Shown here one piece after another: positions 2,960-25,967 of a stretch of DNA of 64,000 nt. The stretch lies in the NCBI GenBank assembly GCA_030612885.1, contig JAUWMZ010000003.1, positions 69,578 through 133,577 on the forward strand. Reading direction: 5' to 3'. The stretch is from Candidatus Nealsonbacteria bacterium. Lineage in GTDB: Bacteria; Patescibacteriota; Minisyncoccia; Minisyncoccales; JAGMDC01. A program made the position numbers and the translations under genes. The notes below the pieces were generated by a model, which had not been told where the DNA came from, did no database searches, and was given only the letters and a program-made list of their open reading frames with translations. Each line of letters opens with the position of its first letter. Within the stretch, counting starts at the first letter, position 1.

Positions 2960-3033
2960 TGCCGGGTCGTCTAACGGTAGGACAACAGCCCTTGGAGCTG
3001 TCTATTTAGGTCCGAATCCTAACCCGGCAGCCA
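2960..3033 (+). tRNA. tRNA-Gln (anticodon UUG) with encoded CCA
   Basis: TGCCGGG TC GTCT AACGGTA GGAC A ACAGC CCTTGGA GCTGT CTAT TTAGG TCCGAAT CCTAA CCCGGCA G CCA. U1-A72 and G73 fit Gln identity. Positions 33 (C) and 55 (C) are non-canonical, hence the reduced confidence. Confidence 0.65.
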
Positions 3034-3152
3034 CGAAAAGTGGCTTCGCCACCCACGAAAAGGCCCGTGGCCCTCGTGGTTTTACGGGCTCGTGGCAAGC
3101 CGCTTTGAAGTGAGTCCCGAGATGAGCGAAGCGAATTTTTCGGGACTAATCT
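3034..3152. repeat. Cluster of GC-rich mini-hairpins immediately 3' of tRNA-Gln
   Basis: Contains GCCACgaaaaGTGGC, GTGGCttcGCCAC, CCACGaaaaggccCGTGG and GTCCCGA(gatgaGCGAAGCgaatttt)TCGGGAC at 3114-3146. The region is sharply more G+C-rich than its flanks and ends exactly where homology to the NUDIX gene begins. Confidence 0.75.
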
Positions 3153-3355
3153 ACATTGGAGAAACTTATAAATTTAAAGACAATAAAGTAAACAAAACCT
3201 GGATTATTCATCCTGTTTTAGCTGAACTAAAAGAATTACCTGATATAAGGCTAGATTGGGAACATACAGAATATAAATGGATTAAGCCGAAAGAGTTAAA
3301 GAAATTTGATATAGTTACTAATCTTGAAAAAAGTTACGAGAAGGCAATATTATAA
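3153..3355 (+). pseudogene. 3' fragment of a NUDIX hydrolase gene (paralogue of 25465..25965)
   Basis: Encodes ...IGETYKFKDNKVNKTWIIHPVLAELKELPDIRLDWEHTEYKWIKPKELKKFDIVTNLEKSYEKAIL. The full gene has ...IGETYKFIDSQINKTWIIYPVLVGLNRLPEIKLDWEHTEYKWIKPEQLKEFDIVTNLEKSFKKAAL. The two share several perfect 24-32 nt DNA blocks. The Nudix box is missing, and the N-terminus of ORF 3092..3355 is read out of the GC-rich hairpin cluster. Confidence 0.85.
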
Positions 3356-3380
3356 CGGTTGCGATTTTTTGTTTTCGGGC

Positions 3381-3409
3381 TTGACTTATTTTGTTTTTAA
3401 AGTTATTAT
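3381..3409 (+). promoter_or_regulatory. Sigma70-like promoter TTGACT-N17-TATTAT
   Basis: TTGACT at 3381-3386, a 17-nt spacer, TATTAT at 3404-3409. The surrounding 30 nt (gcgattttttgtttt...cttgacttattt) recurs at 21941-21970. Confidence 0.6.
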
Positions 3410-3450
3410 TGAAAATACAGCACAAAACATACAAAAAAAGAGGTGATAAG

Positions 3451-4110
3451 ATGATAAAAGAAATAGGAAAGTTTGTTTTTGGTGGATTGAAGATCGGGAT
3501 AGTAGTGTTTATTGTAATAGGACTGGTAGGTTGGATTATAGGCCTGTTATTAGTGGGGATTAATCTTTTTTTAAGATTTATCCCGAGCTGGCAAAATCAA
3601 GGTTTATTGATAAAAATAACCGTAGTATTTCTGGTTTTAATTACTGCGGGAACGGTTATAAACCTTCTATATCACCACCTAAGTACAAAAACAGATGAAA
3701 GAGAGTCAGTACTGATAGATTGGCTAAAAATTCTGTTTTCTTTCAGGCATATCTCTGAGAATACGAAAAAAGGCATACCCTGTACTGCTGAAATAGGAGG
3801 CGTCTATCTTGTAGGATTTGTTGATGAAGAGTATTTAGACGATCCCGATTTACAGAATGTTCCGGTGTTTGACCCTACTAGTCCAAATATAACTACAGGA
3901 ATTGGCCCGATGGTGCCTAAGGAAAAAATAAAAAAACTTGATATAACCAAAGCGGAGACAATGACTTATGATATGAGCGCAGGGTTTGGGAACACACGTA
4001 AAGTAATAAAAAGCATAAACGACAGCATTGAAGAGTATAAAAGACAGAAGAGTATAAAAGACAAAGAAATGCTTAGAATAAAAAATTCTAAGCTTATTTT
4101 TTTTGATTAA
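3451..4110 (+). CDS. Membrane protein, unknown function
   Basis: ATG at 3451 is preceded by AGGTGA. The TTG start listed at 3391 lies inside the promoter. Two long hydrophobic segments are followed by a soluble C-terminal domain. Confidence 0.55.
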   Translation: MIKEIGKFVFGGLKIGIVVFIVIGLVGWIIGLLLVGINLFLRFIPSWQNQGLLIKITVVFLVLITAGTVINLLYHHLSTKTDERESVLIDWLKILFSFRHISENTKKGIPCTAEIGGVYLVGFVDEEYLDDPDLQNVPVFDPTSPNITTGIGPMVPKEKIKKLDITKAETMTYDMSAGFGNTRKVIKSINDSIEEYKRQKSIKDKEMLRIKNSKLIFFD

Positions 4111-4232
4111 AATTATTAACAATTGACTTGACAGCTATCTCTTTATTTTGATATAGTTAAAATAACTTACTGCAATACAGCCGTCGCTTTTTCTCTGAAT
4201 ACAGCTATTTAAAATGAGAAGGAGTATTTTTA

Positions 4233-4970
4233 TTGGATCATTTTCGTTTACAATATAACTTGAATATGTTTTTTAAAAGAATCCCCAAATTTATCTTAGA
4301 GTGTCTGCCAATTATTTTATTAGCGGGGATATACTTAAATTTTGCTCGGCTGGTTGAATTTTTCAAAAGACCCGATTACGATTGGCTTTTAGCTTCTATT
4401 GATAAGTTTTTATTTCTTGGAGAACAGCCCAGTTTTCTTTTAGAAAAATTTATTTCGCCTTTTTTAACTGAATATATGAATTTCAGTTATGGATTTTATA
4501 TTTTTTTATTCCCTATTATTTTAGGGTTATTTTATTTCCAAAGAAAATATCAGGCGTTTTACTCTTTAAGAAGAGCTTTAATCATAGCCATAATGATCAG
4601 TTTTGCCTTTTATTTAGCAGTTCCTGCAGTTGGCCCATATATTGTTTTTGAGGATTTTTATTCAATTGAATTACAGGGCGGATACATTACTCAAGCCACT
4701 CAGAAATTATTAGATTTGTTTCTTTATAATAGAGGTGAATTTCCCAGCCTGCATGTTGCCCTTAGCGCAATTATTTTATTTTTCAGCTATAAATATTCCC
4801 GCAAGTTATTTATTTTTTATTTACCTTTGATACCCAGTCTTTGGTTTGCCACACTCTATCTTAGGCTTCATTATTTTGTTGATATAATAGCTGGATTTCT
4901 CTTAGCTTTTTTTGCTATCTGGTTAAGTTTAAAAATTCAAAATAGTGATAAAGTTAAAAGAAAAAAATAG
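4233..4970 (+). CDS. PAP2-superfamily (phosphatidic acid phosphatase type 2-like) membrane protein
   Basis: Polytopic membrane ORF with PSLHVA and LRLHYFVDIIAG, which are the C2/C3 PAP2 motifs SxH and RxxxxxHxxxD. Confidence 0.65.
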   Translation: MDHFRLQYNLNMFFKRIPKFILECLPIILLAGIYLNFARLVEFFKRPDYDWLLASIDKFLFLGEQPSFLLEKFISPFLTEYMNFSYGFYIFLFPIILGLFYFQRKYQAFYSLRRALIIAIMISFAFYLAVPAVGPYIVFEDFYSIELQGGYITQATQKLLDLFLYNRGEFPSLHVALSAIILFFSYKYSRKLFIFYLPLIPSLWFATLYLRLHYFVDIIAGFLLAFFAIWLSLKIQNSDKVKRKK

Positions 4971-5031
4971 GGTCAGTTCTATTTTTAAGAAGCAGTGAGT
5001 AATAAAATAAGCATACCTGAAAGGAACTTTT

Positions 5032-6585
5032 TTATTTTAAATAAAGATAATCTCTGTAATTTCCTAAATATTCCTTTAGGTTTTTGTTTTTAATCTCCCA
5101 AATTTTATTGCATGCTTCATTGAGAATATAACGATCATGAGAAACCAAAAGAATTGTGCCCTTATATTCTTTAAGCATATTAGTTACAACTTCTTTGCTT
5201 GGAAGGTCTAAATGATTTGTTGGCTCGTCTAATATAAGAAAATTTGATTTTTGCAGTACCAGTTCAGCCAAAGCCACTTTTGCTCGTTCTCCACCGCTTA
5301 ACTGATCGATTTTTTTAGCGGTTTCATCTTGTGTAAGCAAAAGACAACCCAAAACACTTCTAATTTTTTCTTCATTAGAAATTGTTTTAGACGCAACTTC
5401 TTCCAATATGCTTTTTTGGGGGTCTAATTCCTCGTGCGCTTGCGCGTAATAACCAATTTTCACCCCTTGTCCTATTCTTGCTTCCCTTGTAGTAAGTTGA
5501 TGTTTGTTTATGATAGTTTTTAGCAAAGTTGATTTTCCCGCTCCGTTATCGCCTATAATGCCGATTTTATCTCCCCAGTTTATCTCTATTCTGCCTTCTA
5601 TCTCAAATAAGGGCGATTGCTTGTCGCCAATTATTAAATCATTAATTTCTAAAACTTTTGTGCAAACTTTCTCTATATCATCAAAGGCGATTTTGATATT
5701 ACTGCCTGTTTTCGGATTTTCTAATCGTTCAACTTTTTTTAATTGCTTAATCCTGCCTTGAACTTGCCCGGCTATTGCCGCTTTATATCTGAAACGGTCA
5801 ATAAATTCCTGCTGCTTCTTGAAATGCTTTTGCTGATTTTTGTAATTTTTTTCTTGTATTTCAACGCATTTTTGTTTTTCTTTTATGTATTCAGAATAAT
5901 AGCAATAATATTTTTGCAATCCTTGTTTTGTCAGTTCAAAGGTCTTGTCGCACATTTTGTCCAAAAATAATCTATCGTGAGACACGCATATTATTGTTTT
6001 CTTCCAATTCAATAAAAACTGCTCCAGCCATTCTATTGTCCTTAAATCAAGATGATTTGTTGGTTCGTCTAAAATCAATAAATTTGGCTTAGATACTAAA
6101 ATTTTAGCCAGTGCTAGCTTTGTTCTTTCCCCGCCGCTTAATGTTTTAATTTTCCTTTGTAAAAATTGCTCCGGGAAACCGAAACTCTCTAAAAGATTTT
6201 TTACTAATCCTTCACGACGGCTGCTATTTAATTTTAATCTTTCCATATTGACCGAATATATTTCTTCTAAAAGCGTGCTTTGAAGAGATTTCCAATGAGT
6301 TTCCTGCGGCAGATATCCTATTTTGAGATTTTTGTTTTTGCTGATATATCCTTCGTCTGTTTCTTCTATTCCTATAATTATTTTCAAAAGCGCGCTTTTG
6401 CCTATTCCATTCGCTCCCACAATAGCGATTCTATCATTGGAATTTATTGTTAAATCAACACCTGAAAACAACTCCTCTGCTCCATAGGATTTTGAAATAT
6501 TGCGAGTAACCAATAAAGGGTTTTTAATTTTCTCTGATTGAATCTCGCAAAAAAATCTTGGAATTTTTATCTCATTTTTGTTCAT
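5032..6585 (-). CDS. ABC-F family ATPase (two ABC domains, no TM domain)
   Basis: GANGIGKS / LSGGERTKLALA / LLILDEPTNHLD and GDNGAGKS / LSGGERAKVALA / FLILDEPTNHLD, separated by a charged linker. Confidence 0.9.
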   Translation of the reverse strand: MNKNEIKIPRFFCEIQSEKIKNPLLVTRNISKSYGAEELFSGVDLTINSNDRIAIVGANGIGKSALLKIIIGIEETDEGYISKNKNLKIGYLPQETHWKSLQSTLLEEIYSVNMERLKLNSSRREGLVKNLLESFGFPEQFLQRKIKTLSGGERTKLALAKILVSKPNLLILDEPTNHLDLRTIEWLEQFLLNWKKTIICVSHDRLFLDKMCDKTFELTKQGLQKYYCYYSEYIKEKQKCVEIQEKNYKNQQKHFKKQQEFIDRFRYKAAIAGQVQGRIKQLKKVERLENPKTGSNIKIAFDDIEKVCTKVLEINDLIIGDKQSPLFEIEGRIEINWGDKIGIIGDNGAGKSTLLKTIINKHQLTTREARIGQGVKIGYYAQAHEELDPQKSILEEVASKTISNEEKIRSVLGCLLLTQDETAKKIDQLSGGERAKVALAELVLQKSNFLILDEPTNHLDLPSKEVVTNMLKEYKGTILLVSHDRYILNEACNKIWEIKNKNLKEYLGNYRDYLYLK

Positions 6586-6875
6586 AATTTTTCCGGTTTT
6601 TTTACAATAAAAAAAAACAGGGATTAAATAATTTAACGCGATACAAAAGTCAAAAACATAGTCGTTCTTGACTATTTATAGTTAATTATTTCCCTGCTAA
6701 CACGATCTCATGTATTCTATTGTTTGAACAAACATTTTCGTCACTGTCTACAATATAATACAAACCAAAAATTATGTCAATCGTAATTCTTTTTCTTGCT
6801 TTGAGGACTTTTCTCTCAGGGGCTTGAATTTTTTTCCTTCAAGCCTATACTATAATAAAAGATAAATCTATCCTT

Positions 6876-6916
6876 CCCGAGGCAGCGATATCGCTGCCTT
6901 GGGTTTTTATTTTTTA
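6876..6916 (+). terminator. Strong GC hairpin plus T-run (intrinsic-terminator-like) with no upstream + strand gene
   Basis: CCCGAGGCAGCGAT|ATCGCTGCCTTGGG followed by TTTTTATTTTTT. A possible promoter (TTGAAT 6824-6829, N16, TATACT 6846-6851) lies about 25 nt upstream. Confidence 0.5.
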
Positions 6917-6946
6917 TTGATAAAAACCCAAAAATGAGTTAAATTA
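6916..6946 (+). promoter_or_regulatory. Promoter module ATTGATAAAAACCCAAAAATGAGTTAAATTA (copy 1)
   Basis: TTGATA-N17-TAAATT. A 31-nt perfect duplicate lies at 9513-9543. Confidence 0.65.
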
Positions 6947-6964
6947 GAATAATAAAGAAAAAAT

Positions 6965-7087
6965 ATGACAAAATATTTAACACAGGAAGGTTTGAATAAA
7001 ATAAAAAAAGAGCTGGAGTACCTAGAAAAAGTTAGAAGAAAAGAGGTTTCAGAGGAGATAAAACATACTTCTTCTCAAGGTGATTGA
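6965..7087 (+). pseudogene. greA: N-terminal fragment of transcription elongation factor GreA (40 codons, then stop)
   Basis: MTKYLTQEGLNKIKKELEYLEKVRRKEVSEEIKHTSSQGD* matches the GreA N-terminal coiled coil up to the conserved GD. The usual LSENAEY continuation and the C-terminal domain are absent. Confidence 0.75.
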
Positions 7088-7171
7088 CATTGAATAGATT
7101 GGTGTGTGTTAGACATTGAGTGCTTAATAGGTGTTATCGCAAAAATGGCGGTTTTTTGGTAGAATAAAATA

Positions 7172-7459
7172 ATGAAAATTTACATAGAAAAAAATAAATT
7201 TAATGAAAATTTATATAGCTTTATGAGAGATTGCGGATATATGCCTTTTCATAACAGCTATATAAGGCCTTTGGCTCCAAGCGGTTATCCACGGTTCCAT
7301 ATTTATATAAGCGAAACAGATGAGAAATATATTTTCAATCTGCATCTTGACCAAAAAAAACCAAGTTATGGCAAAGAAAGCGCGCATAGCGGAGAATATG
7401 ACGGACAGGTTGTGGGACAAGAAGCAAGAAGAATACAAAACAACATTGACCAATCTTAA
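7172..7459 (+). CDS. Hypothetical protein (95 aa)
   Basis: ORF starts 6 nt after an extended -10 (TGGTAGAAT, 7158-7165), so it is probably leaderless. No motif recognised. Confidence 0.45.
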   Translation: MKIYIEKNKFNENLYSFMRDCGYMPFHNSYIRPLAPSGYPRFHIYISETDEKYIFNLHLDQKKPSYGKESAHSGEYDGQVVGQEARRIQNNIDQS

Positions 7460-7578
7460 AAATGTTTAAGGCCATGTCTTAAACTATTTAAATTTGACAA
7501 AATTGTACACAACTTGTTGACAACTTTGAATTTTGGGGATACAATAAAGTTGTCAACTAATGTAAAGGTTAAAAAAAT

Positions 7579-8610
7579 ATGGATATAAAAGCATTAATCT
7601 TAAAACACCTAAAAAAGAATAAGAAAGTTAAAGTTGCTGATATAGTTAAAGCAACTGGGTTTTCGCGCGCCTATATCAATAGATTCTTTAGGGAATTAGT
7701 AAATCAAGAAAAAATTGCTTTAATTGGAAAAGCAAACAGGGCTTATTATATTGAAGCTAAAAAGGGTGTTGTCCGAAAAACAAAAAGAGAAATTTTAAGT
7801 ATAAAACGGATTCTTAAGAACAAAAATCTTTCTGAATCTGATATTTTAGACCAAATTAAAAAAGATTGCGGGATATTTTTGGATTTACCAAAAAATATCG
7901 TTTCCATTTTGGATTACGCTTTTACTGAGATGTTAAACAATGCTATTGAACATTCTAATTCAAAAGAAATAGTTGTTATAATGGAAAAAAATAAACTTAG
8001 CGTCAATTTTGAAGTGATTGATTTTGGAATAGGTATTTTTAATAATTTGATGGCAAAAAGAGGATTAAAAAACGAATTAGAAGCAATTCAGGACCTTTTA
8101 AAAGGAAAACAAACCACTGTTCCTAAAGAACATACAGGCGAGGGCATTTTTTTTACTTCAAAAGTAGCTGACAGATTAATTATTAATAGCTCAACCAAGA
8201 AATTGATTATTGACAACCAGCTCAATGATATTTTTATTAAAGACATAAAAGCAATTAAAGGAACAAAAGTGCGGTTTGAAATTGGCAAAAAAGCTATGCA
8301 AAATTTAAATGCTGTATTTAGAAAATTTGCTGGAGATACATTTGAATTTAGTAAAACCGAAGTGACGGTCGACCTTTATCAGATGAATAATGTTTTCATT
8401 TCGCGTTCTCAAGCACGAAGAGTTCTTAGCGGATTGGACAAATTTAGAACAATAATTATTGATTTTAAGAATATTGAGGCCATTGGTCAATCTTTTGCTG
8501 ATGAAGTTTTTAGAGTTTGGCAAAGTCATCATTCAGGGATTGATATTAAGTATAAAAACGCTAATGAAAATGTGCTATTTATGATTAAACGAGCACAGGT
8601 TAAAAATTAA
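7579..8610 (+). CDS. Three-domain protein: N-terminal winged-HTH, GHKL (HATPase_c) ATPase, C-terminal STAS-like DUF4325
   Basis: wHTH: VKVADIVKATGFSRAYINRFFRELV. GHKL N box EMLNNAIEHS, G1 DFGIGIF, G2 GEGIFF. C-terminus SRSQARRVLSGLDKFRTIIIDFKNIEAIGQSFADEVFRVW is typical of DUF4325. Confidence 0.7.
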   Translation: MDIKALILKHLKKNKKVKVADIVKATGFSRAYINRFFRELVNQEKIALIGKANRAYYIEAKKGVVRKTKREILSIKRILKNKNLSESDILDQIKKDCGIFLDLPKNIVSILDYAFTEMLNNAIEHSNSKEIVVIMEKNKLSVNFEVIDFGIGIFNNLMAKRGLKNELEAIQDLLKGKQTTVPKEHTGEGIFFTSKVADRLIINSSTKKLIIDNQLNDIFIKDIKAIKGTKVRFEIGKKAMQNLNAVFRKFAGDTFEFSKTEVTVDLYQMNNVFISRSQARRVLSGLDKFRTIIIDFKNIEAIGQSFADEVFRVWQSHHSGIDIKYKNANENVLFMIKRAQVKN

Positions 8611-8614
8611 GAAC

Positions 8615-8663
8615 CTGCCTCGCTTTGCTCGGCAGAACCTTGATTTCTCGCTTCGCTCGAAAT
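8615..8663. repeat. Two adjacent hairpins with different stems but near-identical loops
   Basis: CTGCC(tcgctttgctc)GGCAG at 8615-8635 and ATTTC(tcgcttcgctc)GAAAT at 8643-8663. The second loop is the complement of GAGCGAAGCGA, which contains GCGAAGC. Confidence 0.75.
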
Positions 8664-8670
8664 TAAAATT

Positions 8671-9216
8671 ATGGAAAATCAAGAAAAAAGAATTTTTCTA
8701 ATCGGGATTTTAGGTGGAATAACGGGAGTGATTTTGGTTTTTGGCGGAATTTTTTTGTTTTTTATTTCAATGGAAAAGCTGCATACTATTCAAGTTAATT
8801 GTCTGCCTGAAAAATCAGTTGAGGCAAGAGATATTAGCTGCGAGATTTTAGAAGTTAAGGAAATGGGAAATATATTAAAAGCAGCAGAAATAGCGTCTCC
8901 GCCTGTTAATGAAGAGGAATTAAAAAGAATAAAGGATTTGAAAACAGAAGGAAAGTTTGTGAAAGTAAAAGTGAAAGTATTGAATAAAAGAAAAGATTCA
9001 ATTAATCTTTCAACTGTTTATTTTATTGACGGAGAAGGAAGAAAATTTATTGCTTCCTATAAGGCCAATTATTGGCTGTCGGAAGAAGAGAAGTTTAGCG
9101 GAAGCATTCTCCCTGATACGGAAAAAGAGTTTGCTAAAATTTTTGAAATTTCAGAAAATTCTGATTTAGCTAAGTTGAAAATAAAATTTCATCGCCAAAG
9201 TATAATATTTGATTAA
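8671..9216 (+). CDS. Membrane-anchored protein, DUF4352-like
   Basis: N-terminal TM helix, then a beta-rich domain (GKFVKVKVKVLNKRKDSINLS...FIDGEGRKF) resembling DUF4352. Confidence 0.45.
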   Translation: MENQEKRIFLIGILGGITGVILVFGGIFLFFISMEKLHTIQVNCLPEKSVEARDISCEILEVKEMGNILKAAEIASPPVNEEELKRIKDLKTEGKFVKVKVKVLNKRKDSINLSTVYFIDGEGRKFIASYKANYWLSEEEKFSGSILPDTEKEFAKIFEISENSDLAKLKIKFHRQSIIFD

Positions 9217-9224
9217 TCAAAAAA

Positions 9225-9455
9225 ATGCTGATTAAGGTCAAGGTTTTCCCAAATTCAAAAAAGAGAGAAATAATTAAAAAATTAGAGGATACTTTTGAGG
9301 TTAAAGTAAAGGAAAAACCAATAAAAGGACAGGCGAATAAAGCAGTAAAAGAAGTTTTAGCTTCTTACTTTAAGATTTCTAAATCAAGAATTAGGTTAAT
9401 TAAAGGGTTTAAGCAAAGAAACAAGGTTTTCTCGCTTTCTTCTAAAACCTTGTGA
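9225..9455 (+). CDS. DUF167 (YggU-like) family protein
   Basis: MLIKVKVFPNSKKREI...VKVKEKPIKGQANKAVKEVLASYFKISKSRIRLIKG matches the YggU/DUF167 pattern. The last 11 codons are read through a 10-bp-stem hairpin at 9421-9453. Confidence 0.8.
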   Translation: MLIKVKVFPNSKKREIIKKLEDTFEVKVKEKPIKGQANKAVKEVLASYFKISKSRIRLIKGFKQRNKVFSLSSKTL

Positions 9456-9512: not shown

Positions 9513-9543
9513 ATTGATAAAAACCCAAAAATGAGTTAAATTA
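9513..9543 (+). promoter_or_regulatory. Promoter module ATTGATAAAAACCCAAAAATGAGTTAAATTA (copy 2)
   Basis: Identical to 6916-6946. The -10 TAAATT ends 6 nt before the ATG at 9549, which implies a leaderless transcript. Confidence 0.65.
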
Positions 9544-17725: not shown

Positions 17726-17731
17726 TTAATA

Positions 17732-17911: not shown

Positions 17912-17915
17912 ATCT

Positions 17916-18533: not shown

Positions 18534-18609
18534 GAAAATAGGAGTCAGCTCTGTTTTTTAGAGCAAATCAAACCCCAGTAGTATAAACTACGGACGGGCA
18601 GGGGATTAA
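18534..18609 (+). repeat. Intergenic module, copy 2
   Basis: GAAAATAGGAGTCAGCTCTGTTTTTT ... AAACTACGGACGGGCAGGGGATTAA; see copy 1. Confidence 0.85.
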
Positions 18610-18613
18610 AATT

Positions 18614-19339
18614 ATGGAAAACAAAAAGAATTTATTAAAGAATTTGTTAGGGTTGTTTATTGGATTTTTGGTTGTTTTATTTTATCTGTTTGGAGTAGAT
18701 TTTTATCAGGACCAGTCATATACTTTGGAGACAGAAGAGGTTGAAGTCCAGGTAGAAAGAGTAATTGACGGAGACACAATCCAAGTTAGGGAACTTCAAA
18801 GTGATGAGGTTTTTAATGTTCGCTATTTGGGAATTGATACTCCAGAGCTTGAGGGTCAGGATTATGAATCTTGCTTTGCGTCACAGGCGACAGAGAGAAA
18901 TGAGGACCTGGTTTTAGATAAAAAAGTGATTTTGGAATTTGATATTGATAAATATGATAGATTTGGCAGAACCCTGGCTTATGTTTATACTTTAGATGAA
19001 TTTGGCGAAAAGCAAACCTTTGTTAATCTTGAACTTTTGCAAGAAGGTTATGCCAGATTTTATCTTGATAAACAAAATACTCTTTATCAGGATGAATTTG
19101 TTCAAGCAGTTCTCACAGCTCAGGAAGATTTTTTAGGGATTTGGGGTTCTTGCGGGGAAGCAAGTTTTGACGTAAAATGTATGATTAAGGGTAATATAGA
19201 TCGTCTGGGTCAAAAATATTATCATCTTCCTGGAGATAAATATTATTCTTCTACCAAAATTAATCCCCTTAAAGAGGACCACTGGCTCTGTACCATTGAA
19301 GAGGCAGAGGCCAAAAACTTCCATAGAGCCCTTCAATGA
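18614..19339 (+). CDS. Membrane-anchored thermonuclease (SNase/micrococcal nuclease family)
   Basis: N-terminal TM helix. VIDGDTIQV, YLGIDTPE and DRFGRTLAYVY are SNase motifs. The C-terminal CMIKGNIDRLGQKYYHLPGDKYYSSTKI...WLCTIEEAEAKNF is the conserved Cys-containing tail. Confidence 0.9.
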   Translation: MENKKNLLKNLLGLFIGFLVVLFYLFGVDFYQDQSYTLETEEVEVQVERVIDGDTIQVRELQSDEVFNVRYLGIDTPELEGQDYESCFASQATERNEDLVLDKKVILEFDIDKYDRFGRTLAYVYTLDEFGEKQTFVNLELLQEGYARFYLDKQNTLYQDEFVQAVLTAQEDFLGIWGSCGEASFDVKCMIKGNIDRLGQKYYHLPGDKYYSSTKINPLKEDHWLCTIEEAEAKNFHRALQ

Positions 19340-19500
19340 GGAAAATAGAAAGAAAATAGTGTTAAATATATGTCTTTTCTATTTAAAAGAATAAAAATTA
19401 AGTGGTGGCTGGCAATTTTGATTTACCTTCTTTTTACTAGTTTAATTATTTTATTAGAAGTTTTGATAATAAAATAATTGAGAATTTTAACTAAAAAAAT

Positions 19501-19992
19501 ATGAACAAAAATATTATAATAATCATAGTAATTATTGCTGTTGCAGGCGCTGGCTTTTGGTTTTATAACTGGCAGAGTCAGGACGAAAATCAGAGCCAAA
19601 ACCAGGATCAGAATCAGAACCAAGAGACAGAAGAAGAGCAAAACGAAACAAAAGAGGAAGGGGAAAAAGGACAACTCAAAATAGAGATTTTAGAACAAGG
19701 AACCGGCGAATTAGCTGATGTTGGCAATACAGTAGCTGTTCATTATACAGGCACATTTGAGGATGGAACAAAGTTTGATTCAAGTTTGGACAGAGGACAG
19801 CCGTTTATTTTTAAATTGGGACAAGGACAAGTGATAAAGGGCTGGGAGCAGGGGATTTTAGGAATGAAAGTCGGCGAAAATAGAAAATTAACAATTGGTC
19901 CGGATTTAGCTTACGGAGAGATGGGAATACCAGGAGCGATATTGCCAAATGCAGTTTTAATCTTTGAAGTAGAGCTTTTAGAAATTCAATAA
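19501..19992 (+). CDS. FKBP-type peptidyl-prolyl cis-trans isomerase, membrane anchored
   Basis: TM helix, Q/N/D/E-rich linker, then [16 protein letters not shown]...[18 protein letters not shown]...LIFEVELL. Confidence 0.9.
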
Positions 19993-19994
19993 TT

Positions 19995-20846
19995 ATGAAA
20001 AAATCTATTTATGTAATTAATTTCAGAGGGGAAAGAAAGCCGTTTTCTTTAAGGAAAGTTTACCGGGGAGCCAGGAAAGTGGGCGCTTCAAAGAAATTGG
20101 CTCAAGAGATTAGCCAAGTTATTCAAATGGAGGCCTATCCCGGTATCAAAACCTTAGAGATTTTTAAGAGGATAAAAGAACTTTTAAATCGCGAATCCCT
20201 TAAATTAGGAATAAAATTTTCTTTAAAAGAAGGAATGAAAAAATTGGGGCCCAGCGGTTTTCCCTTTGAGAAATTTATTGGAGAAATTTTCTTCAGACAG
20301 GGATATGAGGTTAAATTAAATCAATATCTTCAGGGCGATTGCTTGAAATATGAAATTGATTTTTTAGCCAAAAAAGGAAATTTGCTTTATGTCGGCGAGT
20401 GCAAATTCAGACATTTATTGGAAGAAGGGCGGGTTCATTCAGAAACTGCTTTGGCTTATTTGGCTAAAACTTTAGATATAAGGAAAGGAAATGTACTTAA
20501 GAGAAAAGAGTTTAATGGCTTTGATGTAAGGCCTATTTTGGTTACTAACGCTAAATTTACCAAGTCAGCGGCTAAATATTCAAGATGCGCAGGGATTGAG
20601 CTTCTGGGCTGGAAATGTCCTAAATCAGGAGGCCTGGAATATATAATTGATAAAAACGGTTTTTATCCTATAACTATTTTGCCTTCTTTAAAGAAAGATT
20701 TAGCTGAGGTTTTTATCAAGAGAAAAATGGTTTTAGCAAAAGATGTTTTAAAAATTAATCCTCAAAAATTTTCAGAGCAAACAGGAATCCCTGAAAAAAA
20801 CTTAAATTCTTTAATAAAAGAAGCTAAAATTTTATTTGAAGCATAA
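19995..20846 (+). CDS. ATP-cone domain fused to an Mrr-like restriction endonuclease domain
   Basis: N-terminal ATP-cone-like YVINFRGERKPFSLRKVYRGARKVG. Centre GFPFEKFIGEIFFRQGYEV...YEIDFLAKKGNLLYVGECKFR is a D...E-x-K core. Confidence 0.65.
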   Translation: MKKSIYVINFRGERKPFSLRKVYRGARKVGASKKLAQEISQVIQMEAYPGIKTLEIFKRIKELLNRESLKLGIKFSLKEGMKKLGPSGFPFEKFIGEIFFRQGYEVKLNQYLQGDCLKYEIDFLAKKGNLLYVGECKFRHLLEEGRVHSETALAYLAKTLDIRKGNVLKRKEFNGFDVRPILVTNAKFTKSAAKYSRCAGIELLGWKCPKSGGLEYIIDKNGFYPITILPSLKKDLAEVFIKRKMVLAKDVLKINPQKFSEQTGIPEKNLNSLIKEAKILFEA

Positions 20847-20856
20847 TTAAAAATAT

Positions 20857-21876
20857 ATGGAGGAACAACAAAGAATTCAAAGGTTTTTACAAGAATTTTC
20901 TAAAAAATTAGCAGAAAAATTTAATAAAGATTTGGATTTTATTTTGCTGTTTGGCAGTGCGGCAAGAGGGGAGTGGAAAAGAGGAATAAGCGATGTGGAC
21001 TTGATAATTCAGGTCAAAAAACTGGAATCAGTGAAAGAGGTAAAAGAATATACAGACAAGATATTTTGGAAATTAGATGAGAAATATGATACTAAACTCA
21101 AAGAATCCTGCTCTGTAGGCGATAAAAAAGATGAAGTTAAAAAGGTATTAGAAAAGACCAAACTTTATGTCCCATATGAAATTTTCGGGCCAGCAGACAT
21201 AGATTGGGTAAACGGCAAAATAAAGAGGAAGGACTTATCACTGGGAGCAAAGTTAGTGGCTCCCCAATCTATGCTCTTTAAGAAAATGAAATACGAGGGC
21301 AAGATTTTATGGGGAAGGGATGTAAGAAAAATAATTCAGGCTAAGGCAAACTGGTGGGAGAAATTCAAAGCCATTTTAATACCATACCATATCGCCCTTT
21401 CTTCTGTTTTAGGGGCTTTATTTGTTCCAAAAATTTGCTTGAAAATGGCTGATAAAGCGGCTATTTACTCCATAGAATCTGTTTTGTTCTTTTTAGACAA
21501 ACCAATTGGAGGGGGCATAAAAAAAGCTACAGAAAAAATAGAAAAAGAAATAAAGAGAAAAGTTAGATATAGGCATAGTTTCTTGGGAACTATGGAAATT
21601 GATTTAGTATTAAATTTTGATTATCAAAAATTATTGAATTTTAATTTTGCAAAAGAAGCTATAGAGCTTAAATACAACTGGGTAGAGCAATCCAAAAAAT
21701 TTGACAGATGGAAAACCTTGAAATTTTGCTGCAGGTCTCTGCTTTTCGTGAATACTATGAACTGGTATGCTATATTCAAAGCAGACAGACATCGTATAAC
21801 CTTAAAGCTGTTATTTGTTTTTAGGACAATCCTATTGTTTTTAATAATCTGGTTGTATTTTCGTTATTTTAGATAA
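20857..21876 (+). CDS. Minimal (MNT/KNTase-type) nucleotidyltransferase with a helical, membrane-associated C-terminal region
   Basis: LLFGSAARGEWKRGISDVDLII has the GS...RG...DxD polymerase-beta NTase motif. The C-terminus has hydrophobic helices (LLFVFRTILLFLIIWLYF). Confidence 0.7.
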   Translation: MEEQQRIQRFLQEFSKKLAEKFNKDLDFILLFGSAARGEWKRGISDVDLIIQVKKLESVKEVKEYTDKIFWKLDEKYDTKLKESCSVGDKKDEVKKVLEKTKLYVPYEIFGPADIDWVNGKIKRKDLSLGAKLVAPQSMLFKKMKYEGKILWGRDVRKIIQAKANWWEKFKAILIPYHIALSSVLGALFVPKICLKMADKAAIYSIESVLFFLDKPIGGGIKKATEKIEKEIKRKVRYRHSFLGTMEIDLVLNFDYQKLLNFNFAKEAIELKYNWVEQSKKFDRWKTLKFCCRSLLFVNTMNWYAIFKADRHRITLKLLFVFRTILLFLIIWLYFRYFR

Positions 21877-21927
21877 TCACGGTAAAATAAAATGGGGTCA
21901 ACTCTGAATTCAAAAACAATTTTAAAT

Positions 21928-21955
21928 AATCGCCAAAGAGGCGATTTTTTGTTTT
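21928..21955 (+). terminator. Rho-independent terminator
   Basis: AATCGCC-aaaga-GGCGATT followed by TTTTTGTTTT. Confidence 0.7.
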
Positions 21956-21958
21956 GCC

Positions 21959-21986
21959 TTGACTTATTTAAACAGCATTGTAGGAT
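21959..21986 (+). promoter_or_regulatory. Putative promoter TTGACT-N16-TAGGAT
   Basis: The same cttgacttattt block occurs at 3380-3391. Confidence 0.45.
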
Positions 21987-22015
21987 ATTATATTACAAGT
22001 TCTTTTAGAAAATTT

Positions 22016-22080
22016 AGGTATCCCAATGTGTTTGTCAGTCCTTCAATAAACTCAGGATTGGCAGATAGATTGGAATACCT
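22016..22080 (+). ncRNA. Structured 5' leader (long irregular hairpin) upstream of the radical-SAM operon
   Basis: Outer stem AGGTATCCCAAT / ATTGGAATACCT (12 bp, one mismatch). Inner stem TGTCAGTCCT / AGGATTGGCA (10 bp with two G-U pairs), 11-nt loop. It lies between the promoter and the AGGAGG RBS at 22108. Confidence 0.45.
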
Positions 22081-22122
22081 AAAAAATAATGGTAGACCAC
22101 TAAAAAAAGGAGGTAAAGAAAG

Positions 22123-23076
22123 ATGGATGTGATATGGAATTTGACGAAAGTTTGTCCATGGGATTGTGTAGTCTGTTCTGTCTCCGCTCTCCATGTTTGT
22201 GATACAACTGCGGACTATGTCTATTTAAAGCAGAAAGAAGAGGGTAAAGAACTTACTCTTGCCGAAAAGCTAATAGTGTTGAAATCCTTAGTTGATAGGG
22301 ATTTTAGCATCGATTTTTCCGGTGGGGATCCATTGTATTATAATGAGGATTTTCGAATAGTAGAACAAGCTACTCGTTGGTTGCCATCGCAAAAAATCAG
22401 TGTTAGTATGACAGGTAGTAATCTTACCGATGCCAAGTTAGAACTTCTAAAGAAAGTTGGTGCAGTAGAGTTTACCTTGGATAACCTTTTAGGAACAGAG
22501 AACCCTTTTCGGCCTCGCGGGTATAATCTTGCCTCAATGATGGCAATGAAAAAGTGTATTGCAGTAGGAATAAAAGTTCGAGCCATTACAGTTCTCTATC
22601 AAACTACAATATCTCAAGAGAATCTTGAAGATGTATACCATTGGTTATGTGAAAGTGCCATTTCAGAATGGGAACTATTGAGATTTTATCCAGTGGGAAG
22701 GAGCGTTGAACTTTCAAGACTTACTCCTTCTAATTCAGAATATCTGAGTACAATGAAGTTTTTGCGAGGATTACATGGATCTACTAAAATTTTCTTCCAG
22801 CATTCACTTAGAATACTAAAAGAAGGTATAAAATGTCCTGCAGTTGTAGAATCTATTGGCATTCTTCCGGGCGGAGAAGTAACGGCTTGTGCTTGGGCGA
22901 TGGATGATAATACGCGACCATTTAAAGAATTTTATCTTGGTAAATTACCGGAGGATGATTTAGGTGAAATTATTGATAGAGCACGGAGAATTCCAGAATA
23001 TTCTGAGAGAGTAAAATTTTGTCGAACAATTGCATATATTGAGAAAAAACACAAGAAAAGGGAGGGAACAATATGA
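22123..23076 (+). CDS. Radical SAM enzyme with a Cys-containing C-terminal (SPASM/twitch-like) region
   Basis: CPWDCVVC (CX3CX2C), FSGGDPL, C-terminal CPAVVES...VTACAWA. Visibly more G+C-rich than the surroundings. Confidence 0.75.
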   Translation: MDVIWNLTKVCPWDCVVCSVSALHVCDTTADYVYLKQKEEGKELTLAEKLIVLKSLVDRDFSIDFSGGDPLYYNEDFRIVEQATRWLPSQKISVSMTGSNLTDAKLELLKKVGAVEFTLDNLLGTENPFRPRGYNLASMMAMKKCIAVGIKVRAITVLYQTTISQENLEDVYHWLCESAISEWELLRFYPVGRSVELSRLTPSNSEYLSTMKFLRGLHGSTKIFFQHSLRILKEGIKCPAVVESIGILPGGEVTACAWAMDDNTRPFKEFYLGKLPEDDLGEIIDRARRIPEYSERVKFCRTIAYIEKKHKKREGTI

Positions 23077-23873
23077 AAATCAAAACAATACAATGTAAAA
23101 GCCTTTTAGGTAAGAGTAGATTACCAGAAGCAGATTATTGCATTAATCCCTACATAGGTTGTCTACACGGCTGTATCTATTGTTATTCTCGGTTTATGAA
23201 GCGATTTACGGGTCATACTGAAAGATGGGGTGAGTTTGTGGATGTGAAAATAAATGCTCCAGAAATTTTAGAGAAAGAACTATTACGAGGTTCCAAGAAA
23301 GGCATGGTGGTATTATCAAGCGTAACAGATCCATACCAGCAAGTTGAAGAAAAATATAAGATTACACGAGGTATCCTAGAAATTCTATTGAAACACGATT
23401 TTCCAATTTCCATTCTCACCAAATCAGATTTAGTGCTCAGAGATATAGACCTGTTGAAACAATTTAGTGATTGCGAAGTTGGGCTCACAATTACAACTCT
23501 AGACGAGAGGGTGGCAAGAGATTTTGAACCTCATTCTTCGTTTCCTCAGCAGAGAGTAAACGCTCTTGAAACACTTCACAAAGAAGGAATAAGGACATAT
23601 GGTTTTATTGGACCCATTCTTCCGAGATTGACCGAACTTCAGCCAATTTTCGCTGCTTTACAAGGAAAAGTCGATTTTGTGATGGCAGAAAATCTTAATA
23701 TGAAATGTGGAAATTGGAGAGATATTCAAGAGGTTCTAGGAAAAAACTACCCCTATTTATTGCCACTCTATCGTGCCAGATTCGATCAAAAATATTGGAA
23801 TACGGTGGAGAAAGAATTAGAAAGACTGACTGAGGAATTCAATATACCGCTGAAAGGATTCTATCAACATTAA
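23073..23873 (+). CDS. Radical SAM enzyme, SplB/COG1533-like (DNA photolyase-like family)
   Basis: CINPYIGCLHGCIYCYSRFM is the CX3CX2C with context typical of the SPL-family group. A 4-nt ATGA overlap with the upstream gene suggests translational coupling. Confidence 0.7.
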   Translation: MKIKTIQCKSLLGKSRLPEADYCINPYIGCLHGCIYCYSRFMKRFTGHTERWGEFVDVKINAPEILEKELLRGSKKGMVVLSSVTDPYQQVEEKYKITRGILEILLKHDFPISILTKSDLVLRDIDLLKQFSDCEVGLTITTLDERVARDFEPHSSFPQQRVNALETLHKEGIRTYGFIGPILPRLTELQPIFAALQGKVDFVMAENLNMKCGNWRDIQEVLGKNYPYLLPLYRARFDQKYWNTVEKELERLTEEFNIPLKGFYQH

Positions 23874-23992
23874 TAGAGAGCAAAAATAAATTTATACTGC
23901 TGACTGTTTAACTAAGTTAGCAGATTTTTTTTCTTTACAAGAATAGTAATATTTGATATTTTTAATATAGGAGTAATTAAAACATTTTTATT

Positions 23993-24457
23993 ATGTATAC
24001 AAAACAGTTAGACAAATTTTTAGTAAAAGCAAAGATTAATACCTATGCTTCGGTTGGAGAAAAAAAAGAGAAAATTCTGGCTGATGGAAGCAAGGAATTA
24101 ATCTTTCAAGAAAAAGAATTTAAATACAGAGATAGGTATTTTGGTTTTAATCCTTTTATTGGTCAAGAAATTGTTTTCCATAATGAAAAGACGATCTGGG
24201 GGATGAATTATTACGGAAAGGTTGTTTCAGAAGTTATTCCAGCAAAAAAGATTTATCAATTTCTTCAAGAGGCGTTAAGAAAAGTAACTGAAGATAAGCC
24301 ATTTAGAGGACAGGATAGTTTCAGAAAAGATGATTTTGAATACGTAAATAATGTAAATGGAAAAATCAAAGGATTTGAGGGGTATGAAACTATTTTTTAC
24401 AAAAAGGAATTAGTATATAAACTGAATTATCATGGTGGATTAGTGGCAATTTCTTAA
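23993..24457 (+). CDS. DUF5680-like hypothetical protein
   Basis: FLVKAKINTYAS...YRDRYFGFNPFIGQEIV...WGMNYYG pattern. Assigned from memory of the family. Confidence 0.45.
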   Translation: MYTKQLDKFLVKAKINTYASVGEKKEKILADGSKELIFQEKEFKYRDRYFGFNPFIGQEIVFHNEKTIWGMNYYGKVVSEVIPAKKIYQFLQEALRKVTEDKPFRGQDSFRKDDFEYVNNVNGKIKGFEGYETIFYKKELVYKLNYHGGLVAIS

Positions 24458-24657
24458 CCAAATAATAGGTCTAATGGGCAGATTGTAAGATATCCAGAAA
24501 TAGTGAGTAGTAGGGTAGAATCTGATATAATAATTTTAGGTTTGTGGCCTTAAATCTGTGATGTAAATATATTTATTTGACTGTTGAATTATGATTCCAA
24601 TATTGTTCATGATGGTCTGTTTCTTTTAGCGCAGTTCGAGAGGCCAATTCGTATAAC

Positions 24658-24687
24658 GAAAAAGACCTTAAATTTAAGGTCTTTTTC
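24658..24687. terminator. Bidirectional hairpin terminator
   Basis: GAAAAAGACCTTAAATTTAAGGTCTTTTTC is a perfect palindrome with A-run and T-run flanks. Confidence 0.65.
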
Positions 24688-24714
24688 GTTGAATCCTTAG
24701 ATGTCTACTTAACT

Positions 24715-24890
24715 GGATAAACTTGTTCTCCGGCTATGATTAGTTTTTCTAATTCCCAACTTTTTGAGTCAGCATCGTCTCCTCCTAGATATTTTAACAC
24801 CGCAGTATAATCGTTTCTAATCATTGCTCCAAAACTATTTTGAGAATCTACATAAGAATTAATTTGATGTTTCAAAAAACTTGTTGATGT
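24715..24890 (-). pseudogene. Possible C-terminal gene fragment
   Basis: The reverse frame reads ...LKHQINSYVDSQNSFGAMIRNDYTAVLKYLGGDDADSKSWELEKLIIAGEQVYPVK*. An in-frame TGA lies just upstream and no credible start exists. It sits in an otherwise non-coding 600-bp gap. Confidence 0.3.
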
Positions 24891-25073
24891 TTGATATCAA
24901 CAAGTCTTATCGCCACCTTGGTGATTTTTTATTTGACAAAATTTATTAGTATGATATGATATTATTAGTTCGTTGAAAGATTTGGATGGCCTAATTTGTT
25001 TATCAAAAAATAGTAGATAAATTAGGCTATCCAAAGGATAGACCGAATAGAATAGGAAAAGAGGTGAACGAAT

Positions 25074-25346
25074 ATGCCAAATGTAGAAATTCACGGAGAA
25101 GCCCCGTGGAAAGCGGAAGACTTAAGCAAGGAAATTTTTGAATTGTTTGCAGACAAGCCCTATGTCGAAGAAATGGTTGTGACTATTTACGGAACCATTG
25201 TAACGGATTTTAAGGGGAATATCCAGCCATTTATTAGGCTTGTTAACTCTTGCCAAGAACACTCGGAGGAGATAATTGAAAGACTGAAAATTTTAGGGAT
25301 AGATATTGAACATCTCAAAATGGAGTCTTTTATTCCGAAAGAGTAA
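25074..25346 (+). CDS. Hypothetical protein, possibly tautomerase-like (N-terminal Met-Pro)
   Basis: 90 aa beginning MPNVEIHG. RBS GAGGTGA lies 6 nt upstream. Confidence 0.4.
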   Translation: MPNVEIHGEAPWKAEDLSKEIFELFADKPYVEEMVVTIYGTIVTDFKGNIQPFIRLVNSCQEHSEEIIERLKILGIDIEHLKMESFIPKE

Positions 25347-25464
25347 CAGCTGTTGCAGACAGATTGAGTGTTTTCGTTCAAATTTTGAAAGCCGAAAAGT
25401 ATTTATACCAAGTAGGCGTTTTTTTTATTTCCAAAACAACGGTTTTTTGGTAGAATAAGATAAT

Positions 25465-25965
25465 ATGTATAGCAAAGAAGAAAAAATTTTAAACACAATC
25501 AGAGAATTTGCTGAAAAGTTGCCAAAGTTTCAAGACGGAAGAATTGATTATTCAAATTCTGATATTGCTCCAGTGATAACTGTTTTTATAAAGTATGAAT
25601 ATAAAATTCTTTTATTGAAGCGAAGCAATAAAGTCAGAACTTATCAAAGAAAGTGGAATGCTATTGCTGGTTATTTAGACGAATTAAAACCAATTCGTGA
25701 AAAAGCGATAGAAGAAATTCAAGAAGAAACGCAAATCAACAGAGATAATATTTTATCCTTTCACATTGGAGAAACTTATAAATTTATAGATTCTCAAATA
25801 AATAAAACTTGGATTATCTATCCTGTTTTAGTTGGATTAAATAGGTTGCCAGAGATAAAATTAGATTGGGAACATACAGAATATAAATGGATTAAACCAG
25901 AACAATTAAAAGAATTTGATATAGTTACTAATCTTGAAAAAAGTTTTAAAAAAGCAGCACTATAA
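25465..25965 (+). CDS. NUDIX hydrolase
   Basis: AGYLDELKPIREKAIEEIQEETQI is a Nudix-box-like segment. Extended -10 TGGTAGAAT lies at 25449-25456. Confidence 0.7.
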   Translation: MYSKEEKILNTIREFAEKLPKFQDGRIDYSNSDIAPVITVFIKYEYKILLLKRSNKVRTYQRKWNAIAGYLDELKPIREKAIEEIQEETQINRDNILSFHIGETYKFIDSQINKTWIIYPVLVGLNRLPEIKLDWEHTEYKWIKPEQLKEFDIVTNLEKSFKKAAL

Positions 25966-25967
25966 AA

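Follow-up and report, generated by a model that had tools for sequence, protein, structure and literature searches.

Flexible genomic islands and defence hotspots that lie between core genes and are turned over by homologous recombination are known from Alteromonas, Prochlorococcus, Vibrio and Pseudomonas. In the candidate phyla radiation (CPR, or Patescibacteria), whose tiny genomes contain few mobile-element genes and for which there is no genetics in culture, the acquisition and shuffling of defence genes is poorly documented. The subject here is the interval between the genes for tRNA-Gln and efp in a 64-kb stretch of the genome of an uncultivated, ultra-small Candidatus Nealsonbacteria bacterium (contig JAUWMZ010000003.1); the whole of this stretch is termed the window, and all coordinates are positions within it. 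The first-pass annotation of this DNA had described a 22-kb island between tRNA-Gln and an intact NUDIX gene, growing and decaying by recombination at short promoter/terminator cassettes. The region is of a kind already known, both as flexible islands and hotspots and as restriction-modification (R-M) islands of Patescibacteria, and is found here in a CPR genome. What is noteworthy is that a conserved gene, NUDIX, has been caught as a breakpoint with both products retained, and that ultra-conserved terminator-promoter anchors delimit swappable slots.

The features of a core-flanked hotspot are all present, namely conserved flanks, differing content, defence enrichment and recombination tracts. 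As in the flexible islands and hotspots to which two earlier reports give leads (PMC4898812, PMC10872708), conserved core genes form the flanks (dnaX-tRNA-Gln on one side, efp-AMMECR1-LigB on the other), the content is variable and enriched in defence genes, there is no dedicated recombinase and a tRNA gene is adjacent. Unlike those islands, conserved scaffold genes and short anchors are interleaved here instead of forming one replaceable block, a breakpoint falls within one scaffold gene, NUDIX, where a reciprocal-looking scar has been retained, and the genome, that of a CPR bacterium, is very small. Closer taxonomically are islands in metagenome-assembled genomes (MAGs) of Patescibacteria, predicted by composition (IslandViewer), one of which holds a complete type I R-M system and for which competence and homologous recombination were proposed as the route of entry; repeat-bracketed rearrangements, chimeric flanking genes or module-delimited slots are not described there (PMC12455944). 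The present locus belongs to the same phylum-level group and also carries R-M genes, but of a type II/IIS-like kind (AlwI family, two D12 methyltransferases).

Tycheposons of Prochlorococcus reportedly encode integrases and leave partial tRNA repeats. They are described as tRNA-targeting elements that build island arrays (bioRxiv 10.1101/2020.12.28.424599); the present locus resembles them as a tRNA-adjacent variable region in a streamlined genome, but an integrase and tRNA repeats were looked for in it and not found. Integron cassette arrays are similar in being unidirectional, with mostly single-gene units, short repeats between them and variable, often defence-related content, but here there is no IntI, there are no attC-like imperfect inverted repeats, and the repeats are terminator-promoter units that give each gene its own promoter. 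Campbell-type integration by a single crossover is a textbook mechanism, and as in its products direct repeats flank intervening DNA and one copy is demonstrably a chimera of two parents; unlike in such products, the second copy is a 3' fragment set against unrelated hairpins, no circle or empty site was found, and the intervening DNA looks native. Rearrangement of the pneumococcal tvr R-M locus is said to depend on a site-specific recombinase, which is lacking here. The excision and reintegration at that locus (PMC6265443) is a circular-intermediate rearrangement at a repeat-bounded defence locus and a possible analogue of one of the paths considered below. By its features the present locus is neither an integrase-mediated tRNA island nor an integron, and of the features of a Campbell insertion the one clearly seen is the pair of flanking direct repeats.

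The proteins of the window have their nearest relatives in MAGs of Parcubacteria/Paceibacterota/Minisyncoccales, and contigs of three other runs or samples match it at 99.9-100% identity over the relevant parts. Four relatives offered long context: R1 (contigs L172 and L168; dnaX 92% identical in amino acids), R2 (L176), R3 (L177; rarA 95% and dnaX 83% identical in amino acids) and L167. The last also belongs to the A-clade, as the closest homologues of the NUDIX gene are termed here (P0002-P0004, on contigs L166, L165 and L167). A wider set comprised 80 more distant related metagenome dnaX loci.

The central evidence is a direct repeat of 203 nt (3153-3355 and 25763-25965) whose copies lie in the same orientation 22,610 nt apart, are 81% identical, contain exact blocks of 24, 34 and 33 nt and both end precisely at their stop codons. 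The bracketing repeat noted in the first pass is therefore real, with its length of about 205 nt and blocks of 24-32 nt slightly amended. Its left piece had been taken as a copy of the 3' end of the intact resident NUDIX gene (25465-25965, + strand; from 25421 with its promoter), but this piece, a + strand fragment of 67 codons with its frame intact, matches the NUDIX 3' ends of the A-clade at 91.6-95.6% identity and that of the resident at 81%. More specifically, the resident gene is a chimera of an A-type 5' part and a long-diverged B-type 3' end, and the left fragment is the native A-type 3' end, which has been displaced but still has its native sequence downstream. The promoter and first 298 nt of the resident gene are 92% identical to the A-clade, whereas its last 203 nt are only 80-82% identical to it, with the more distant R1 gene equally near at 83%. 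Synonymous divergence from the A-clade (dS, by NG86) is 0.25-0.27 in the resident 5' half, 0.58-0.85 in its 3' half and 0.15-0.34 in the fragment. The max-chi2 test places a switch after 25727 (15/263 mismatches before it and 46/238 after it), a value reached by none of 2000 permutations; the A-type part runs from 25465 to about 25727-25762 and the B-type part from there to 25965. This breakpoint lies about 35 nt from the position equivalent to the 5' edge of the fragment. Because the resident 3' end is about three times more diverged at synonymous sites than its 5' part, the 203-nt repeat is best read as the scar of recombination between two long-diverged NUDIX sequences. The dN/dS of the resident 3' half against the A-clade is about 0.2, so that this sequence has long been under constraint.

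The downstream context of the fragment is revealing of its origin. In L166 and L167 a full-length NUDIX gene runs on unbroken into the sequence that lies 3' of the fragment in the window, that is, a terminator-promoter module (P3, 3361-3391, + strand) and the start of a membrane-protein gene (memb, about 3451-4110, + strand). Homology passes across the NUDIX stop codon into memb in L166 (window 3155-3513, 91.6%) and likewise across the stop in L167 (window 3190-3425, 90.7%). The fragment has a low dN/dS; it has kept an open reading frame and differs from orthologues mainly at synonymous positions, and must therefore have been truncated recently. The first 24 nt of the two copies are identical, and both have a C at 25764 (or its equivalent) that is missing from the A-clade and R1, four relatives in all. 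In another lineage the same gene has been broken independently and at a different point, for the ORF directly upstream of rarA in R3 (L177 9743-10000) consists of the first 49 NUDIX codons followed by 36 unrelated codons; this remnant stands at outgroup distance from the A-type (84%). None of the NUDIX relatives lay on a viral contig. As a separate observation, a near-identical in-frame insertion of 48 nt (…AATAAAAACCTTGCCTTTGACAAGAAC…; alignment columns 413-460) is present in the NUDIX genes of L167 (~2476-2523) and L168 (~10348-10395) and is lacking in L165, L166 and the two copies of the window, a pattern that conflicts with overall similarity; the insertion falls just 3' of the window breakpoint.

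The region from 3.0 to 30.8 kb is rather likely to be an integrase-free plasticity zone remodelled by homologous recombination, with the 203-nt repeat as the scar of one ectopic homeologous exchange between NUDIX copies. Before this exchange an A-type NUDIX gene would have been followed by P3 and memb, while a B-type 3' end would have been linked to rarA. Through the exchange the B-type 3' end before rarA would have received the promoter and 5' part of the A-type gene, giving an intact chimeric gene, and the displaced A-type 3' end would have been stranded 22.6 kb upstream, beside tRNA-Gln. The agent would be recombination of the RecA type, probably acting on DNA from close relatives or on intragenomic circles; homologous recombination is suggested because NUDIX is chimeric and because identity to relatives is patchy, both along the locus (76-93% in nucleotides to R3) and between GtrA and dnaX (see below). 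Competence and recombination genes have been reported in this phylum (PMC12455944). Two paths may be envisaged. In the first, one reciprocal crossover would suffice; between direct repeats this requires a circular intermediate, so that either a 22.6-kb circle would have been integrated or a topologically equivalent excision and reinsertion would have occurred. This path is favoured by the near-coincident breakpoints and by the identical first 24 nt including the C at 25764. In the second, an old NUDIX gene linked to rarA would have had its promoter and 5' half overwritten by ectopic gene conversion, and the left copy would then have lost its 5' half by deletion; the native-looking intervening DNA, the B-type mismatches from about 35 nt upstream of the repeat and the lack of an empty site or circle junction favour this path. 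The locus would provide a concrete, datable case in which a conserved housekeeping-type gene was cut and re-joined by homeologous recombination, and defence cassettes were swapped between anchors, with no site-specific recombinase.

Several points weigh against such an exchange. No full-length B-type gene occurs among the 120 closest NUDIX homologues, and no relative with both A-type and B-type NUDIX loci was recovered. The switch point (about 25708-25764) and the edge of the fragment (equivalent to 25763) agree only within about 35-55 nt. The left copy has no 5' half, so that only its A-type 3' part is visible while the right copy is chimeric. The comparison rests on short metagenome contigs that come from several organisms with a mosaic mutual phylogeny. 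Finally, the perfect conservation of one duplicated module (P1, below) could reflect selection on promoter function and not recombination.

A less likely possibility is that a discrete 22.6-kb circle, an episome or a circularised segment of a close relative, carried an intact A-type NUDIX gene and was integrated by a Campbell-type crossover; its target, equally conjectural, would be a NUDIX 3' segment between tRNA-Gln with its hairpins and rarA, and the insert could excise again through the repeats. With repeats in the same orientation, this is the only single reciprocal event that gives both novel junctions (hairpins/A-type 3' and A-type 5'/B-type 3'), neither of which is parental; the identical first 24 nt and shared C are as expected of heteroduplex, and the intact frame and low dN/dS of the fragment make the event recent. 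However, the bracketed genes are as similar to R1, R3 and the A-clade as the flanks are, with nothing to mark them as foreign, and their homologues in R1 and R3 are chromosomal and lie in this very interval. Genes for replication, partition, conjugation or phage functions are lacking, and the B-type mismatches about 35 nt upstream of the repeat are unlike a crossover within a truncated 203-nt target. An empty site (tRNA-Gln-hairpins-NUDIX 3'-rarA), which the first reading had suggested looking for as dnaX-tRNA-Gln directly before NUDIX-rarA, was seen in no relative, and the predicted un-rearranged or circle-junction protein (resident residues 1-100 joined to the fragment tail) had no exact match in a collection of 15 billion proteins. 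An assembly error would be a further explanation, if a chromosome (tRNA-Gln-hairpins-B-type 3'-rarA) and a 22.6-kb circle had been mis-joined at the shared blocks of 24-34 nt. The Logan contig L083 does end inside the repeat, at 3281, so that assemblers can break there; this contig carries no alternative sequence. The left junction is reproduced in L084 and L083 (two runs) and the right one in L081 and L082 (two samples), at 99.9-100% identity, and exact blocks of at most 34 nt are shorter than the final-round k-mers of metaSPAdes and MEGAHIT, which makes an artefact very unlikely.

A tandem or segmental duplication in situ followed by divergence, or a pair of independent paralogues, with the fragment as a decaying duplicate, would fit the direct orientation and the sharp end at the stop codon, which resemble a duplication joint. 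This explanation is improbable nonetheless: the supposedly decaying fragment is nearer to other organisms' orthologues (92-96%) than is the functional copy (80-82%), its downstream context is orthologous in L166 and L167, and dS between the two 3' copies (0.79) is about three times that of the resident 5' half against the same orthologues. Duplication predicts equal divergence of both resident halves, and the max-chi2 test rejects homogeneity. The two NUDIX 3' ends diverged long before the truncation, which excludes duplication followed by divergence in situ, and the chimeric resident gene shows that the repeats are not paralogues without a recombination signature. Tandem duplication with subsequent deletion gives the right architecture but also predicts equally diverged 5' and 3' halves and was rejected on dS and max-chi2. 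Excision of a circle of rarA, addA and the NUDIX 5' part with reinsertion near efp is possible and disfavoured, as R3 already has NUDIX-rarA-addA near efp. A classical integrative element or integrase-mediated island at tRNA-Gln whose integrase has since been lost could account for the tRNA adjacency, the defence cargo and the lower GC of the R-M part (the region has its minimum of 0.28-0.29 at 9-13 kb; the AT-rich window has a GC of about 32%). Against it, no integrase or integrase relic was found by Pfam at 3-31 kb, and neither Pfam nor PADLOC found transposase, replication, partition, conjugation or phage genes there. The 3' end of tRNA-Gln (28 nt, up to 3 mismatches) matches itself alone, so that there is no second copy and no att-type repeat; the repeat is instead the 3' end of a protein gene without an att core. 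Relatives also share much of the content, and the combination of a boundary integrase with tRNA-derived direct repeats did not turn up in the 80 dnaX-tRNA-Gln loci, which were not scanned for integrases. Such an origin has very little probability.

The absence of an integrase from the region had been stated in the first reading, as had the presence of a single tyrosine recombinase elsewhere in the window, and both hold: the sole Phage_integrase match is an Xer-like gene at 52706-53662, 22 kb beyond efp. Cumulative GC skew rises to about 53 kb and then falls, and the location of this gene at the turning point suggests that it is a chromosome-dimer resolvase near the terminus (dif-type function) and not an island integrase.

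Comparison with relatives shows that the unit of plasticity in this part of the genome is the whole interval from tRNA-Gln to efp, and not the stretch between the NUDIX copies. The length of the interval is 27.7 kb for the window, as against about 13.9 kb for R1, about 12.9 kb for R3 and 2-7 kb for distant relatives; six distant loci have efp on the minus strand 2-7 kb downstream of tRNA-Gln. In R1 the order is tRNA-Gln, P3-memb', PG_binding, NYN, RadC, MazG, NmeDI_C, AIPR, NYN, x, DUF4352, PepM29, NUDIX, FKBP, PAP2, AF1548, NTase and efp(-), with only 38 nt between NTase and efp. In R3 it is tRNA-Gln, P1-YjbQ, Fpg, o81, leader-o158, ABC-F(+), o61, DUF4352, o54, FMN_red, the NUDIX 5' remnant, rarA, addA, xseAB, RRM(-) and efp(-). 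R2 has MazG and genes of no assigned function after tRNA-Gln, L167 has the addA 3' end, orf92, a methyltransferase (MTase), NUDIX and P3-memb, and Dam-type MTases follow tRNA-Gln in L092, L103 and L114. The same content in the same order, which would make this a stable core region, was found in none of R1, R2 and R3, all of which differ. The intact NUDIX gene had been seen as the right boundary; against R1 the variable zone extends to efp at 30.8 kb, and the NUDIX-rarA-addA linkage is common to R3. RarA was of little use as a synteny probe, as it has matches in several phyla at 65-81% identity and the neighbouring genes are never common; the neighbourhoods of the RarA homologue P0243 and the NUDIX homologue P0013 are both unrelated to the window locus.

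Many of the bracketed genes are native scaffold, being chromosomal in the same interval of relatives at identities like those of the flanks. At least 8 of them are shared with R1 or R3 in this interval. In amino acids, DUF4352 is 88-90% identical in R1 and R3, FKBP, AF1548 and NTase are 77%, 88% and 93% identical to R1 (83.5-91% in nucleotides for the block), ABC-F is 81% identical in R3, where it is inverted, and RadC is 52% identical in relatives; PAP2 is in the R1 interval by annotation, with no sequence match detected between window and R1. Among the flanks, dnaX is 83% and efp 89% identical to R1 in nucleotides, and rarA-addA is colinear with R3 at 89%. The interval may thus be pictured in two layers, a conserved scaffold of single genes (memb, PAP2, ABC-F, DUF4352, RadC, NUDIX, FKBP, AF1548-like and NTase, with rarA-addA in some lineages) and slots with genome-specific content, often defence genes; most units would carry a terminator-promoter module. 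The truly variable parts are those at 9.5-19.4 kb and 21.9-25.4 kb. Of the first-pass picture of an integrase-free mosaic, the recombination signature (in the chimeric NUDIX), the nature of the duplicated modules as terminator-promoter units and the start and stop of homology blocks at modules stand, and the single 22.6-kb island does not. The locus is a warning that repeat-bracketed, tRNA-adjacent, defence-rich DNA is not necessarily a mobile island, since here the repeat marks an internal rearrangement of a largely native scaffold.

The gene content of the interval was assigned by Pfam (30 ORFs of at least 75 aa at 1.2-30.1 kb, with the MscS-like gene scanned separately) and by PADLOC for defence genes. 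Nearly all genes lie on the + strand (27/28 ORFs), as had been noted. Following memb is a left block of mostly clade-conserved genes (4233-9455): PAP2 (4233), ABC-F (5032-6585, minus strand), a greA relic of 40 codons (6965-7087), orf7172 (7172), HATPase/DUF4325 (7579), DUF4352 (8671) and DUF167 (9225). The truncation of greA seen in the first pass is borne out by a GreA_GreB_N annotation on the identical contig L084. The variable defence slots downstream (9549-19339, all + strand) open with RadC fused to a D12 MTase (9549-11363), in which the RadC part (UPF0758_N and JAB domain, residues 1-222) is followed in frame by a D12-class N6-adenine MTase (residues 273-604). In R1 RadC is a stand-alone gene of 228 aa; the fusion looks like the result of an R-M cassette becoming attached to the end of the conserved RadC gene. 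A second D12 MTase (11366), an AlwI-family restriction endonuclease (12275) and PDC-S14/DUF4357 (13862) follow, then two ORFs of no assigned function (14782, 15747), a DUF6998 ORF (16620), orf17203 (17203), a Zn-ribbon ORF (17732), AbiU2 HEPN (17916) and SNase (18614). Next is a conserved + strand block (19368-21876) with the intergenic anchor IG-19368, FKBP (19501), AF1548/Mrr-like (19995) and the nucleotidyltransferase gene NTase (20857). A second variable block (21923-25346, + strand) consists of a P3-type terminator-promoter with a 200-nt leader, two radical-SAM genes (22123, 23073), DUF5680 (23993) and orf25074 (25074), and is missing from the R1 and R3 intervals. The description of the genes as mostly accessory or defence-like was an overstatement: only type II R-M (two MTases and the AlwI-family endonuclease), PDC-S14 and AbiU2 HEPN are firmly called as defence genes, and at least 8 other genes are conserved in the interval of relatives. 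Defence-type genes occupy slots in R1 as well (NmeDI_C, AIPR, NYN).

The window and R1 have a series of short colinear anchors, consisting of non-coding or relic sequence, in common, but not the genes that these enclose. These are M1 (6809-6875), M2+P1 (6894-6962), P1-RadC, X, Y and IG-19368. M1 and M2+P1 are adjacent in the window and flank the PG_binding gene in R1. Between M2+P1 and P1-RadC, R1 has NYN where the window has greA'-orf7172-HATPase-DUF4352-DUF167; between RadC and X, R1 has MazG and NmeDI_C and the window has the AlwI-type R-M genes and PDC-S14; between X and Y, R1 has AIPR and the window has three other genes. Anchor X (14742-14786, + strand; VYKLYGLTKEEIKIV) is the relic of an orphan R-M C-terminal tail, as the first reading had recognised, and is 82% identical to L168 4928-4972; its neighbouring genes differ in each genome. 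Anchor Y (17104-17198, + strand), an intergenic relic with a mini-ORF of 17 codons, is 82% identical to L168 6725-6815, where it lies between AIPR and NYN. Homology blocks between genomes begin at module edges, at 3361 (P3), 9512 (P1) and 21923 (P3-type terminator).

The duplicated modules are present as placed in the first pass. By consensus scan, P1, P2 and P3 are predicted to be units of a terminator hairpin and a sigma-70-type promoter. P1 is an exact repeat of 31 nt on the + strand, with one copy upstream of the greA relic (6916-6946; TTGATA-17-TAAATT, preceded by a terminator hairpin at 6876-6903) and the other upstream of RadC (9513-9543). The second copy with the RadC upstream region is 100% identical to R1 over 37 nt. 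The exact 31-mer occurs twice in the window, twice in R1 and once in R3, upstream of RadC, greA', NYN and YjbQ, in genomes whose coding DNA differs by 8-24%. P2 is an exact repeat of 19 nt at 7149 and 25440 (25440-25458 on the + strand, upstream of NUDIX), the core of which is present in seven distant relatives, always downstream of tRNA-Gln. P3 (GCGATTTTTTGTTTT..CTTGACTTATTT) stands at 3361 and 21941, with a promoter-like TTGACT-17-TATTAT at 3381-3409. The leader at 21923-22121 (200 nt, terminator-promoter plus structured sequence) is 91% identical to R3 (L177 5100-5300); it precedes a radical-SAM gene in the window and an unrelated ORF of 158 aa in R3, and the genes on both sides are non-homologous. 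A further pair of leaders of about 80 nt, also noted earlier and now placed at 17647-17725 and 18535-18609, matches perfectly in two blocks (24 and 25 nt; AAAATAGGAGTCAGCTCTGTTTTT and AAACTACGGACGGGCAGGGGATTAA) that enclose a variable centre. One copy immediately precedes the Zn-ribbon ORF/AbiU2 pair and the other SNase; neither has a counterpart in the relatives, and the pair may represent a cis-regulatory element shared by two defence-type units.

Exact repeats of at least 24 nt are far beyond chance, as Markov shuffles yield about six repeated 16-mers; the window holds 14 non-trivial exact repeats of at least 16 nt, 9 of which touch the region at 3-26 kb. Recombination may have taken place at the modules themselves, and selection on promoters or the movement of whole units with their promoters would give the same pattern. 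It is conceivable, though doubtful, that in this Parcubacteria clade the interval is an integrase-free cassette array, every gene being a self-contained unit delimited by a P module, in which these modules and the conserved NUDIX 3' end serve as substrates of RecA-dependent exchange after natural transformation; the modules would then play an attC-like role and also secure the expression of incoming genes. A second module family outside the region (40274-40349, 44337-44412 and 47755-47797; 43-76 nt, 83-88% identical) precedes a class II aaRS gene, an ORF of 570 aa without Pfam match and ftsW. Since these genes are unrelated core genes outside the region, module duplication is a genome-wide habit and no hallmark of an island.

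The left boundary is formed by a GtrA-like gene (1220-1834), dnaX (1836-2954) and tRNA-Gln (2960-3033, by ARAGORN), all on the + strand. A GC-rich hairpin cluster of 119 nt (3034-3152, + strand) fills the whole gap between tRNA-Gln and the repeat, so that the truncated copy indeed starts at the edge of this cluster; folding gives a minimum free energy of -56.4 kcal/mol (z = -4.5 against shuffles). Rfam gave no match even at E <= 1 for the cluster, the 17.6/18.5-kb leader pair or the radical-SAM leader, and no second copy of the cluster was found in the window or the fetched loci, contigs of the same strain aside. In R1 P3 and memb come straight after tRNA-Gln, with a gap of only 26 nt before the module. 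In the distant loci dnaX (80/80), a tRNA-Gln 3' of it (73/80) and a GtrA homologue 5' of it (67/80) are conserved, and the content after the tRNA varies. GtrA is 98% identical in amino acids to R2 and 57% to R1, whereas the adjacent dnaX is 92% identical to both; allelic mosaicism therefore reaches into this supposedly core flank. In R2, tRNA-Gln has an identity of only 78% and is set about 740 nt apart from dnaX.

On the right, rarA (25968), an addA-like UvrD/PD-(D/E)XK helicase-nuclease gene (27110) and an MscS-like gene (30156), all on the + strand, form a block that ends at 30692. The right flank (30761-33703, minus strand) consists of efp (30761-31471), AMMECR1 and LigB-like genes and keeps the same order in R1, R3 and 4-6 more distant loci. 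GC-rich palindromes of one REP- or terminator-like family (GGGCGAAGTCCGTCTTCGCCC and its complement) are absent from the tRNA-Gln-to-efp interval; six copies lie in the window's right half, at 32007-32035, 44585-44613, 60085-60113, 60672-60697, 60905-60934 and 61990-62018. Within the interval, a perfect palindrome of 36 nt lies between DUF5680 and orf25074 (24655-24690).

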